DNA of 64,000 nt from Escherichia coli (GTDB lineage: Bacteria > Pseudomonadota > Gammaproteobacteria > Enterobacterales > Enterobacteriaceae): NCBI RefSeq assembly GCF_016903815.1, contig NZ_CP069973.1; one strand, written 5' to 3'. The notes under the pieces were generated by a model that saw nothing but the letters and a program-made list of their open reading frames with translations, searched no databases and was not told the DNA's origin. How positions within the stretch are numbered: position 1 is the stretch's first letter; each line of letters opens with the position of its first letter. Position numbers and translations under genes: made by a program. Shown in pieces: positions 7,396 through 13,347 of this stretch.

Positions 7396-7656
7396 AATAT
7401 AATAATAAACAACACAAAACAATTATTAAAATGATGCCATTTTAATGTTACAAATATAAACAACACCCATCCACAAGCCAAGTTAAAAATCCAAGATATA
7501 ATTTTGTTATTATCTATAAATAATACAAGTATAATCTATACGCTAATCAATTATTTTTGTAGAAAATTTATTTTATTAGTATTTACACGAAAATATGACG
7601 AAGTTATTAGCATTACACATTTATAATCATCAAATATGAAAATATTGTTACTATCA

Positions 7657-8655
7657 TCACTCCTCAATAAGTTTATCTAAAGGAATATAATATAATTGAG
7701 CAAATCTTTTTTTATGATCCCCAAGAGCAAACATGATAACCAATGATTTTGATTTGCGATCAATAGCTAAACCTTCAGGTTCCCAATGTTTTTCTTTGCC
7801 ACTGTTAAGAGAATCTTTTTTCCCTACTGTTACATTATTAAACTTTCTTACAAGCTCTCCTTTTAACGTGTAAATATAGATTCTTTTGTTTTCTCTATTC
7901 CCTCCCCCACTCAACAAATATATATATTTATTATCAGCGGTAATGGCTTGCAATACATAATTATCATTGGTTAAACCTGCATCGATAAACCATTCTATAT
8001 TTTGTTCTGATGAAATATCACTCTCGATTCGAAAGTTAACTTCTTCACTATTATAGACTCTTAATAAGTCTCTACCATTCAACTTACTTCTTACTATTAA
8101 ATATTTAGCATCTAAGGTTAAAACAGGCATTGTACTAACACGAGTATTATATGGTCTATCGAATATTTTTATAATTTTCATCTCATAAGGAAAAGAAAAA
8201 TCATTGTATTTAAAATATGTAACAAACCATCCTTTGTTAGCAAAGGCATTTCCCGCAGACGTTATTACCCCCCCCTCAAAAGGATCAAACCCAATTCCTT
8301 GATGCCCAATAAATTCAGTGGGTTTTTGAAATGACAATGCTACAGCTTTTCTTTTTTTTGTTGTTAATGAGAATCTATTTATAACTCCTTTTTCGGGTTT
8401 CCCTGTGGTATGTAAAGTATAAATATCAGAACTAAATCTATCAATCACGACTCCTTGAACAATATTATTTTTACCCTCGCCATCCCTATATAATCTCACT
8501 TTTCTCGTAACAATATCATCATTTAAATGAGAAATAAAATTAGCCAAAGGTATATTTGTTGCAGATGATGAATTATGCAACAACATTAATATCAAAAAAA
8601 ATAAATTTATATACTTCAAACACATTGAAAATTTTTCATATGAACCGATTAGCAT
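7657..8655 (-). CDS. Capsule region 2 protein, predicted secreted/periplasmic, unknown function
   Basis: 332 aa ORF in AT-rich DNA; probable signal peptide starting at the internal Met (MCLKYINLFFLILMLLHNSSSA), so the true start may be about 8625; no family assigned from sequence alone. Confidence 0.55.
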   Translation of the reverse strand: MLIGSYEKFSMCLKYINLFFLILMLLHNSSSATNIPLANFISHLNDDIVTRKVRLYRDGEGKNNIVQGVVIDRFSSDIYTLHTTGKPEKGVINRFSLTTKKRKAVALSFQKPTEFIGHQGIGFDPFEGGVITSAGNAFANKGWFVTYFKYNDFSFPYEMKIIKIFDRPYNTRVSTMPVLTLDAKYLIVRSKLNGRDLLRVYNSEEVNFRIESDISSEQNIEWFIDAGLTNDNYVLQAITADNKYIYLLSGGGNRENKRIYIYTLKGELVRKFNNVTVGKKDSLNSGKEKHWEPEGLAIDRKSKSLVIMFALGDHKKRFAQLYYIPLDKLIEE

Positions 8656-9037
8656 AATATTAGATTATACCAAATAAACGCACTAACCAAACTTGAATTT
8701 AAAAACACAGTTCACAACTTAAGAAGCACTATTTTAAACACATTGATAAAACAATGAAAATCCCGCAAACACTCTAATTATTAAAATACATAAAAATAAA
8801 AATCGTTATAAAAAAAGTTATAATCCATCAAAAACAAAAAAATGCACATAAAATATTTCTGTTTAAGAAGATGTTATAAATACAATATTTAATTCATCAA
8901 ATGTTTTTCTATTGGCAATTTACTAAACTGTATTTACAGTATAAAAAATACTAAATACATTTCCACATCAGAGGTGATCACAAAACAACCACCTCTTGCA
9001 GTCATATTTTTTACATCTGCATGGTTTTTAATATTAA

Positions 9038-10204
9038 TTATGAAAAATAAGTTTCATACCTTTTTTTATATGTTTCACTTTCAGGGGATAGACTATATGC
9101 CATTTGGGCCATTTTTTTTGCATCTTCCAATAACCCTTTCCTTTCATATATTAGAGATAGATTATAATACGAGCCAGCAGATGAAGGCATTAAAGATATA
9201 TATTCATAGAAATGCTGTATTGCCTGATCATATTTTTTTGACATCCTTAATGACTTTGCCAAATTATATTTAGCTGTTGTAAAATGTGGCGAAATACCGG
9301 CAACAAAAGCAAACTGCTCTACAGCTAAAGTATAGTTCTTGAGCTCCATATTTACTAAAGCAGAAATAAATATAGCAGGTTCGAGTAAAGGTTCAGCCAA
9401 CAAAGCTTCCCTGATTAAAGATTGAGCAGTGGAAAAATCTTTGTTGACAAATGCCTGGTAAGACAGGAATATATTTTTTGATAAGATTTTATTATGGCAA
9501 AGATTATTAATCTCTTTAATTTCGGGAAGTGTGTTATTTTCCACAAAAAAGGTTATTATATTAGGCATTCCATATCTTTTATCTATAAACCGCCCCACAC
9601 CATGTGTTACTCCTCGAACGGAATACGCTTTAACATTTTTAAGATCTGAAATCCTACTCAATGAAAGTAAATCAGGAAAATCCATTTCCCCACTTAATGC
9701 TGTGATTCTACATTTAGAGTTTTTTATAATTGGGCGTAGATTCTTATATATAATTTTTGTCTTTTTAGGAATTCTTTTAGCACTACGGCTCAAGGGATAT
9801 TTTAGTACCGTGTCAAAGCTAAAGGCTAACACACGACAATCCAGAAGAGCGCCAAATAATGAAGCTGCATATCCTCCCATACTGACGCCTATTGTTATAA
9901 TCTCGTCACAACCTAGTTGTTCAGAAATATATTTTATTTTTTCTATTGTTTCTGATATTGAAGAACTAAACCCTGGAATACTATCTTGGTACCATTCATT
10001 TTTACCATTGTTAATTAACAAAATATTATATGGCAGTTCATCTGCTGATTTCCAAAAATCAAAGCGGCCATCTTTTTTATCTGTACCAGAAAAAAAGACG
10101 AGCAATTTATTAGACGTTTTTTTAATCAGTCTATGAGAAACCCCATGCTCATTTATATTTAATTGTAAATTCATATTTTTATTATCTAAAGTCATGATAT
10201 ACAT
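9038..10204 (-). CDS. Capsule region 2 protein: alpha/beta-hydrolase-like N-terminal domain fused to C-terminal TPR-like repeats
   Basis: 388 aa ORF; GxSxG nucleophile-elbow motif (GVSMGGYAA); C-terminal helical repeats (YNLAKSL..., YYNLSLIYERKGLLEDAKKMAQMAY); AT-rich codon usage matching neighbours. Confidence 0.6.
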   Translation of the reverse strand: MYIMTLDNKNMNLQLNINEHGVSHRLIKKTSNKLLVFFSGTDKKDGRFDFWKSADELPYNILLINNGKNEWYQDSIPGFSSSISETIEKIKYISEQLGCDEIITIGVSMGGYAASLFGALLDCRVLAFSFDTVLKYPLSRSAKRIPKKTKIIYKNLRPIIKNSKCRITALSGEMDFPDLLSLSRISDLKNVKAYSVRGVTHGVGRFIDKRYGMPNIITFFVENNTLPEIKEINNLCHNKILSKNIFLSYQAFVNKDFSTAQSLIREALLAEPLLEPAIFISALVNMELKNYTLAVEQFAFVAGISPHFTTAKYNLAKSLRMSKKYDQAIQHFYEYISLMPSSAGSYYNLSLIYERKGLLEDAKKMAQMAYSLSPESETYKKRYETYFS

Positions 10205-12689: not shown

Positions 12690-12782
12690 GTTTCTTTTGT
12701 TAGTTCGCTCTAAGCCTCAACAGACATAGGTGTTCATTCCCTTTTCAAGGGGATGAACACCTACCTGAACATAAACATTAAT

Positions 12783-13178
12783 TTAACTGTATTTTTTAAT
12801 CTCCGTAATAAGTTTTGTAGTAGAAATGCCTTCCGTCCTTGGTAAATAAATAACCTCGCATAACTTTTTAAACATATCAAACTTTCCTTCCCAATCATTA
12901 CCCATAATAAGAATGTTAGCTTTATATTTTTTTATATACTCACCTTTTAATTCAAGTGACTCCTCAAGAAATACGTCATCAACATATTGTAGAGAACGAA
13001 TAATTTCACATCGCTCATTTTCTGGGTAAACTGGGTATCTTTGCTTTTTAGAGAAACTTAATGCATCGGATGACACGCCAACAATTAATCGATCACCATA
13101 TTTCTTTGCTCTTTCTAAAATTTTAATGTGGCCAATATGTAAAACATCAAATGTTCCAAAGGTTATGACTGTACGCAT
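12783..13178 (-). CDS. Glycerol-3-phosphate cytidylyltransferase (TagD-like)
   Basis: About 131 aa; N-terminal ITFGTFDVLHIGHIKIL contains the HxGH nucleotidyltransferase signature and matches the TagD-family start; ORF track gives 12783..13190, start trimmed to the Met before RTVITFGTFD. Confidence 0.7.
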   Translation of the reverse strand: MRTVITFGTFDVLHIGHIKILERAKKYGDRLIVGVSSDALSFSKKQRYPVYPENERCEIIRSLQYVDDVFLEESLELKGEYIKKYKANILIMGNDWEGKFDMFKKLCEVIYLPRTEGISTTKLITEIKKYS

Positions 13179-13347
13179 TGTATATTCCAATTTATATAAA
13201 GAGAGATTTTTTGATAACGGAAATCAAGATTTAGCAAAATAAATACCATCGCCATCAACCTCACCTCATAAAGTCAGTAAATACAAATGAGAACAAGGTG
13301 ATTTCGTGATAATAATTGCATGAATTACACAACTTGAATGAAGATAA

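Follow-up and report, generated by a model that had tools for sequence, protein, structure and literature searches.

An Escherichia coli group 2 capsule locus assigned to K24 and its predicted route to a Kdo-glycerol phosphate polymer

Five capsule genes and their match to K24

We analysed a stretch of 64,000 nucleotides from Escherichia coli (NCBI RefSeq assembly GCF_016903815.1, contig NZ_CP069973.1), here called the window, and focused on region 2 (7396-13340) of a group 2 kps capsule locus, which very probably determines the K24 capsule. Five intact open reading frames (ORFs) on the minus strand, between kpsS and kpsT, make up this region. Starting next to kpsS, they encode a secreted 5-bladed beta-propeller protein (7657-8655, 332 aa), a protein that joins an alpha/beta-hydrolase to tetratricopeptide repeats (TPR; 9038-10204, 388 aa), a TagF-like glycerophosphotransferase for cytidine diphosphate (CDP)-glycerol (10233-11423, 396 aa), a GT29-like glycosyltransferase (11430-12689, 419 aa) and a TagD-like glycerol-3-phosphate cytidylyltransferase (12783-13190, 135 aa). 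They correspond to K24_8, K24_9, K24_10, K24_11 and K24_12, respectively, of the kTYPr genotype-serotype map. The flanks, kpsFEDUCS on one side and kpsMT on the other, are those of a standard group 2 (2A) kps locus. An earlier reading of the letters without database searches (hereafter the sequence-only reading) had described five AT-rich minus-strand genes in region 2 of such a locus, and this description held: the G+C content is 29.8% in 7396-13340 in comparison to 50.6% in region 1, 42.8% in kpsTM and 52.5% in the remaining window. A region 2 with 30% G+C points to import from an AT-rich donor.

The same reading had called the serotype not assignable, which a comparison of region 2 with characterised E. 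coli K loci overturned: it is a catalogued K24 cluster. The K24 reference in kTYPr is NZ_CP074024.1:777049-793732 of strain PK5 (Miravet-Verde et al., 2026; PMC13171606), and K24 is defined there by unique K-specific gene content, with reference proteins at an identity and coverage of at least 90%. The same five K-specific genes occur in the same order in the window and in the reference cluster. Region 2 is 99.93% identical to that of PK5 (4 mismatches in 5,945 nt), region 1 is 99.9% identical and kpsM 98%. The allele found in the window is also the one that the kTYPr authors picked as K24 RefSeq reference after comparing the sequenced SSI K24 reference strain (PMC13171606). In addition, region 2 of the window differs by a single base from that of strain 7/2, which shares all five protein accessions with PK5; the sole protein change is H101Y in the GT29-like protein. 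The K24 entries accessible in the kTYPr InterPro table list K24_8 as a member of the beta-propeller superfamily, K24_9 as a 385-aa protein with TPR, K24_10 as a 396-aa protein with PF04464 at residues 129-263 and K24_12 as a cytidylyltransferase (PMC13171606), and the ORF lengths and domains of the window agree with these entries. Foldseek-based assignments of K24_8, K24_9 and K24_11 are absent from the accessible part of the kTYPr supplementary tables.

A second line of evidence comes from a serotyped strain. A0 34/86 is the Colinfant probiotic strain (PMC10508162), and the serotype of the Colinfant product strain is O83:K24:H31 (PMC9140140). Pairwise protein comparison revealed all five genes in A0 34/86, at 93, 98, 97, 95 and 97% amino acid identity to the window. 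The serotype can thus be assigned as K24, based on both the kTYPr reference match and this strain. The full-length 5.9 kb block is present in 60 of 5,426 complete E. coli genomes and falls into two allele groups, 49 copies at an identity of at least 99% and 11 at about 97%; A0 34/86, LF82 and NRG 857C (O83:H1) belong to the latter. Taken together, we consider it very probable that the window carries the group 2 K24 locus and that its region 2 makes a teichoic-acid-like polymer of alternating alpha-Kdo (Kdo, 3-deoxy-manno-octulosonate) and glycerol phosphate.

One structural difference concerns the boundary between kpsS and region 2. No insertion sequence (IS) is located there in the window, in contrast to PK5 with ISVsa5 (7521-8729 of the fetched locus L003) and A0 34/86 with ISEc39 (7078-8286 of L002). 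The junction therefore appears to be an insertion hotspot in K24 strains.

Polymer chemistry and the proteins of region 2

The locus is already known and named: the structure of the K24 polymer was published in 1990 and the link between genotype and serotype in 2026. Going by its title, the 1990 paper of Lenter, Jann and Jann reportedly describes a polymer of alpha-KDOp and glycerol phosphate. In kTYPr the structure is cited as Lenter, Jann & Jann, Carbohydr Res 208:139 (1990) (PMC13171606). K24 is counted among the group 2 capsules with alpha-pyranosidic Kdo (alpha-Kdop) (PMC12887879). In the literature covered we found no linkage positions for K24, and K24 is not mentioned in the EK3D paper or in the 2023 BMC Genomics paper. 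The presence of a CDP-glycerol and TagF-type module predicts a capsule containing glycerol phosphate, and to this extent the earlier prediction of such a capsule stands; what has to be replaced is the sugar, which is Kdo and not galactose. The absence of a gene for UDP-galactopyranose mutase (UDP, uridine diphosphate), seen as a difficulty before, is for that reason irrelevant. The idea that sugar precursors are drawn from housekeeping pools was imprecise as well, since cytidine monophosphate (CMP)-Kdo is made partly by kpsF and kpsU within the locus. Between kpsS and kpsT there are indeed no neu, kfi or UDP-sugar genes.

Over its full length (residues 5-131 versus 1-126) the TagD-like protein aligns with TagD of Bacillus subtilis (1COZ, E 9e-38) and it also matches 2B7L (E 5e-33); the HIGH motif of the HxGH type, noticed before from the sequence, is present. 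TIGR01518 is its best-scoring NCBIfam family by a wide margin. Judged by this homology, the protein should make CDP-glycerol. RefSeq automatic names for the TagD-like protein, 'pantoate--beta-alanine ligase' and 'FAD synthase family protein', are misleading. The TagF-like protein, likewise recognised before, matches PF04464 in residues 128-262 (E 5e-16) and aligns weakly with the TarL polymerase 8VA1 over the KMH and SD(F/Y)S motifs. No domain match beyond PF04464 was found in its 396 aa, neither TPR nor a fused GT-A or GT-B domain. It should transfer glycerol phosphate from CDP-glycerol, with Kdo as the presumed acceptor.

Sharing of the tagD allele goes beyond K24. Together with its flank (12700-13340), it is found at 97-99% identity in seven further genomes, and in the three listed of these the adjacent gene encodes a different CDP-glycerol glycerophosphotransferase, which suggests recombination at tagD between K types. 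These genomes probably belong to the K117/K122 group, for which the accessible part of kTYPr lists a 97% identical TagD (PMC13171606).

The GT29-like protein was described by the sequence-only reading as a glycosyltransferase with sialyltransferase motifs, and several types of analysis agree with this. A single-sequence search resulted in a weak match to PF00777 (i-Evalue 6.6e-4, model positions 28-262 of 272), the same family is precomputed for 17 of 20 homologues, and these 20 were the only matches among 5.8 billion proteins, which makes the family very rare. Invariant across it are C-x-VGN, RIN, DYG, PSTG, FGF, HY and H405, corresponding to the sialylmotifs L, S, III and VS. While a single-sequence search of the PDB returned no match, the family profile found GT29 sialyltransferases only, and its sialylmotifs L, S, III and VS fall in register with those of ST3Gal-I and ST8SiaIII. 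An AlphaFold model (mean predicted local distance difference test score 85.7) starts with a helical domain of about 240 residues; for the C-terminal domain that follows, the top 24 Foldseek matches in the PDB are all GT29 enzymes (probability 1.00). NCBIfam holds no family for this protein or for the propeller protein.

Compared with the sialyltransferases ST3Gal-I (2WNB), ST8SiaIII (5BO6) and ST6GalNAc2 (6APL), the K24 protein has the four sialylmotifs and the fold of the C-terminal domain in common, but it is bacterial and cytoplasmic, its catalytic domain is shorter (about 180 versus about 270 residues) and the N-terminal helical domain is extra. The locus also differs in that it has no sialic acid pathway; the presumed donor is CMP-Kdo and the presumed acceptor glycerol. 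When GT29 enzymes transfer CMP-beta-linked ulosonic acids, they do so with inversion of configuration. Inversion by the K24 protein, and by the GT29-GT107 protein of E. coli K6, would yield the alpha-Kdo linkage that both capsules contain, and the kTYPr authors likewise tie GT29 domains to Kdo in the case of K6 (PMC13171606). Based on the inversion by GT29 enzymes, the lack of sialic acid genes in region 2, the occurrence of kpsF and kpsU, and the K6 link, we infer that this protein is an inverting alpha-Kdo transferase that uses CMP-Kdo and forms the alpha-Kdo-glycerol bond. Before KrkA of K13, which is a retaining enzyme, no enzyme that inserts Kdo into the variable portion of a capsule had been studied (PMC12887879).

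In the hydrolase-TPR protein, the alpha/beta-hydrolase covers residues 20-225 and the TPR part residues 235-388 (both approximately), in line with the fusion proposed before. All homologues, down to 29% identity, keep Ser108, Asp175/178 and His201, an argument for catalysis. The nearest alpha/beta-hydrolase fold is that of the meningococcal capsule O-acetyltransferase CsaC (SacC; Neisseria meningitidis serogroup A, PDB 6YUO), with which the K24 protein shares the fold and the Ser-Asp-His triad at an identity of 17%, differing from it by the fused C-terminal TPR domain. The protein is most likely an O-acetyltransferase of the CsaC type. A real possibility, if on the doubtful side, is that it does not acetylate at all and serves the polymerase complex as scaffold, chain-length regulator or esterase, with TPR used as in CpsD of Actinobacillus pleuropneumoniae. 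This would fit the finding that the TPR domains of Cps3D and Cps7D are essential for elongation from the linker (PMC11666461) and the fact that the K24 transferases are separate proteins, the TagF-like one having no TPR; in addition, we found no report of O-acetylation of K24 in the literature covered. Both the conservation of the triad in such distant homologues and the nearest fold, that of a capsule O-acetyltransferase, speak against this alternative. In some genomes, the hydrolase-TPR protein carries the misleading RefSeq automatic name 'M48 family metallopeptidase'.

The fifth protein had been predicted to be secreted, and it does start with a hydrophobic signal-like segment, MCLKYINLFFLILMLLHNSSSA. 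It matches PF21311, the 5-bladed beta-propeller receptor-binding domain of phages (E 1.8e-13, model positions 77-254 of 255), the minor tail protein family phrog_287 (E 1.7e-13) and the tail fibre 6IAB of phage P68 (E 1.8e-4). It thus belongs to the same 5-bladed beta-propeller domain family as the tail receptor-binding platform of staphylococcal phages (PF21311; 6IAB), but unlike the phage tail proteins it is a stand-alone ORF of 332 aa with a signal-like N-terminus, located between kpsS and the capsule enzymes. No phage genes were found near it among the ORFs and the annotation of the locus. The ligand of phage domains of the PF21311 type is wall teichoic acid, a polymer chemically related to K24, and our guess is that the propeller binds the teichoic-acid-like capsule outside the cytoplasm. 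RefSeq automatic names are unhelpful for this protein too ('phage baseplate protein' or 'hypothetical protein').

The propeller gene is surrounded by very AT-rich gaps. Between kpsS and the propeller gene (7396-7656) the G+C content is 20.7%; the 382 bp between the propeller and TPR genes (8656-9037) are non-coding, have 23.8% G+C and are conserved in A0 34/86. Promoter and terminator scans of 7300-9200 resulted in sites that were no more numerous than in shuffled sequence, which neither supports nor opposes a separate transcription of the propeller gene.

Cassettes related to region 2 occur in other organisms. In Pseudomonas paraversuta, genes for the TagD-like, GT29-like, TagF-like, TPR and PF21311 proteins are found around a KdsB gene at 71, 52, 61, 35 and 24% identity. 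Metagenomic ABC-transporter capsule loci encode homologues of the GT29-like protein with 50-60% identity, next to tagD, a TagF-like gene, a TPR protein gene and, in most loci, a gene for a PF21311 protein. Among the related cassettes, L004-L008 and L012 encode a PF21311 protein. The metagenomic cassettes directly adjoin KdsA, KdsB(-KdsC) and KdsD/KpsF genes, and homologues of kpsU lie inside related cassettes of both the Pseudomonas and the metagenomic loci. This conservation beside Kds genes supports a functional five-gene module as well as the link to Kdo. Across the related cassettes the propellers diverge much faster than the enzymes (22-33% versus 50-60% identity). Remoter GT29-like domains (23-31%) are encoded by Salinicola, Colwellia, Neisseria, Roseibium and others, likewise in capsule loci.

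Competing readings and a proposed assembly route

Several observations count against the assignment to K24 and a Kdo-glycerol phosphate polymer. The allele of the window, of the 'PK5/ST38 type', diverges by 2-7% at the protein level from the serotyped O83:K24 allele, and the K24 call for it is a genetic one. The glycerol phosphate part of the repeat unit is taken from the title of the 1990 paper. For O-acetylation of K24, we found no statement for or against in the literature covered. At the level of single proteins, the TIGR01518 score of the TagD-like protein (129.2 bits) lies below the NCBIfam equivalog cut-off of 165.4, the single-sequence Pfam match of the GT29-like protein to PF00777 is weak (19.6 bits), and its Foldseek matches have E-values of about 0.01 and target-normalised TM-scores of 0.35-0.43. 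H101Y in the GT29-like protein is private to the window, whose Tyr replaces a residue that 11 of 17 homologues have as His. Finally, the enzymes of the locus are uncharacterised, and we infer their donor and acceptor assignments.

The H101Y change goes back to position 12389 of the window (codon 101 of the GT29-like gene), which is A, while strains 7/2 and PK5 have G; the residue lies in the N-terminal helical domain. All other top database copies have the same score as 7/2 and PK5 across the segment around 12389. Either a variant private to the strain or an error in sequencing could account for the change.

The allele divergence raises the question of whether the window encodes a type that is related to K24 but serologically distinct, with the same backbone and a different modification or linkage, so that it would not type as K24. 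The split of the complete genomes into a group of 49 and a group of 11 would fit this, as would the fact that the alleles are least alike in their secreted propeller (93%) and GT29-like enzyme (95%); moreover, kTYPr notes that some serotypes differ by acetylation alone and are genetically indistinguishable (PMC13171606). We nevertheless regard a distinct type as unlikely, because gene content and order are identical in both alleles, every catalytic motif is kept in both, and the allele of the window is the very one chosen for K24 in kTYPr after the comparison with the sequenced SSI strain.

A transfer of sialic acid or another nonulosonic acid instead of Kdo by the GT29-like enzyme would agree with its structural and profile matches, all of which are CMP-sialic-acid-dependent sialyltransferases. 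This is very unlikely, given that region 2 has no neuBCA or other genes for nonulosonate synthesis, that the related cassettes adjoin KdsA, KdsB and KdsD genes, which make CMP-Kdo, and that the K24 polymer contains alpha-Kdop (PMC12887879).

The sequence-only reading had also left room for a K2-like polymer. We compared the window with region 2 of the K2 strain CFT073 by pairwise protein comparisons. This region contains genes for a TagD homologue, a TPR protein, a fused TagF-like polymerase of 1,266 aa, a member of the XcbB/CpsF family and a hypothetical protein, and it clearly shares TagD only (78% identity) with the window, so that a K2 identity was rejected on gene content. A galactosyl-glycerol-phosphate polymer of the kind known from E. 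coli K2, serogroup H of N. meningitidis and serotype 9 of A. pleuropneumoniae, made with housekeeping UDP-galactose, is most improbable: both loci do have TagD, a PF04464 domain and a TPR protein, but the TagF domain of the fused CFT073 polymerase is only 22% identical over 136 residues, the GT29-like and beta-propeller genes have no counterpart in K2, the window has no GT-A/GT-B hexosyltransferase of the kind in TagF-like capsule polymerases (PMC5974469), and it matches the K24 reference cluster and not K2.

Among the nearest known systems are the TagF-like polymerases of E. coli K2, A. pleuropneumoniae 3/7 and N. meningitidis H/Z (Litschko et al., 2018, 2024). Common to these and K24 are a capsule exported by an ABC transporter, a TagD homologue for CDP-glycerol, a PF04464 phosphotransferase for a sugar-glycerol-phosphate backbone and the involvement of TPR. 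In the TagF-like polymerases, the TagF-like domain, the GT-A/GT-B hexosyltransferase and TPR are fused in one polypeptide, whereas K24 divides these parts among three proteins. The former take a UDP-hexose as donor; in K24 the donor would be CMP-Kdo, used by the GT29-like enzyme. By definition, TagF-like capsule polymerases carry a GT-A or GT-B domain in the same polypeptide (PMC5974469), and every CpsD homologue analysed has its TPR and catalytic modules on a single enzyme (PMC11666461). The K24 TagF-like protein thus lacks two family-defining features, the fused glycosyltransferase and the fused TPR.

For K24, we propose the following route. TagD would convert CTP (cytidine triphosphate) and glycerol-3-phosphate to CDP-glycerol, as its strong homology suggests. 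CMP-beta-Kdo would be supplied by KpsF and KpsU of region 1 together with the housekeeping enzymes KdsA and KdsC. KpsF is an arabinose-5-phosphate isomerase and catalyses the first step to CMP-Kdo; the window begins within its gene and contains the 3' part (1..434, ORF 3-434, plus strand), which is collinear, with an offset of 1605, with the KpsF/GutQ coding sequence of strain 7/2. KpsU is the CMP-Kdo synthetase (3364..4104, plus strand; annotated as kdsB/3-deoxy-manno-octulosonate cytidylyltransferase in the near-identical locus L001) and would feed both the poly-Kdo anchor and the Kdo of the K24 repeat unit. From CMP-beta-Kdo, the GT29-like enzyme would move Kdo to a glycerol hydroxyl with inversion, creating the alpha-Kdo linkage, and the TagF-like enzyme would add glycerol phosphate from CDP-glycerol to a Kdo hydroxyl, forming the phosphodiester.

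By alternating these two steps the chain would grow on the lipid-linked poly-beta-Kdo anchor, which is made by the beta-Kdo transferases KpsC and KpsS (PMC12887879), encoded at 4101-6128 and 6163-7395 on the plus strand according to ORFs and annotation. The finished polymer would be exported by KpsMT and KpsED. KpsE (506-1654) and KpsD (1675-3354), both on the plus strand and identified by ORF and L001 annotation, are the periplasmic and outer-membrane export components. The ABC transporter genes of region 3, kpsT (13348-14022) and kpsM (14019-14795, ATG at 14795), lie on the minus strand (ORF and annotation). As a CsaC-type O-acetyltransferase, the hydrolase-TPR protein would modify the polymer, and through its TPR half it may also act as a scaffold for the two transferases, which are separate proteins. 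The secreted propeller would work outside the cytoplasm, perhaps by binding the polymer; this last step is speculative. As a whole, a 'split' teichoic-acid-like route that combines an inverting alpha-Kdo-to-glycerol transferase of the GT29 type, a minimal stand-alone TagF-like enzyme and an exported propeller for binding or processing of the polymer appears to us quite possible, short of probable, and we put it forward tentatively.

Expression, neighbourhood and significance

A pattern match for an ops/JUMPStart element, GGCGGTAGCGT, is located at 14825..14835 on the minus strand, about 30 nt upstream of the kpsM ATG. An ops element at this site is the expected loading site of RfaH and lets transcription of region 3 read into region 2. 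Region 2 is therefore probably transcribed from the region 3 promoter via RfaH/ops read-through. Upstream of kpsM (15000-15850) there is an AT-rich stretch (32% G+C) of about 1 kb without a long ORF, which presumably holds this promoter; the ops element is the one signal that was located upstream of kpsM.

The gsp type II secretion genes come after kpsTM. Further away, at about 43785-52835 and downstream of the glc operon, the window carries a cluster that is annotated in strain 7/2 and CFT073, and the positions of the window ORFs match this annotation. It encodes a fatty acyl-AMP ligase (AMP, adenosine monophosphate), an epimerase/dehydratase, an acyl carrier protein and a serine palmitoyltransferase (spt). 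Next come LptG and LptF paralogues together with a protein of the YtfJ family and one annotated as 'LPS biosynthesis protein'. From its gene content, the cluster looks like one for synthesis and export of a sphingolipid-type lipid.

For the genomes that carry the block, the assignment means that they are callable as K24 and that a Kdo-glycerol-phosphate polymer is predicted as their capsule. Many of these are isolates from humans, gulls and wastewater, and LF82, NRG 857C and the Colinfant strain are among them. The carriers include several antibiotic-resistant isolates, such as an OXA-carrying gull strain and strains named for extended-spectrum beta-lactamases.

We see the interest less in the locus itself than in the putative Kdo transferase of the GT29 type and in the conserved accessory, a secreted protein homologous to phage receptor-binding domains. 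K24 represents a compact, uncharacterised route to a teichoic-acid-like polymer, in which a sialyltransferase-like enzyme must make the alpha-Kdo linkage. If the proposed route is true, the K24 enzyme would be the first in the GT29 family with a demonstrated use of CMP-Kdo, and capsule biogenesis and phage receptor-binding proteins would be linked by descent via the propeller.

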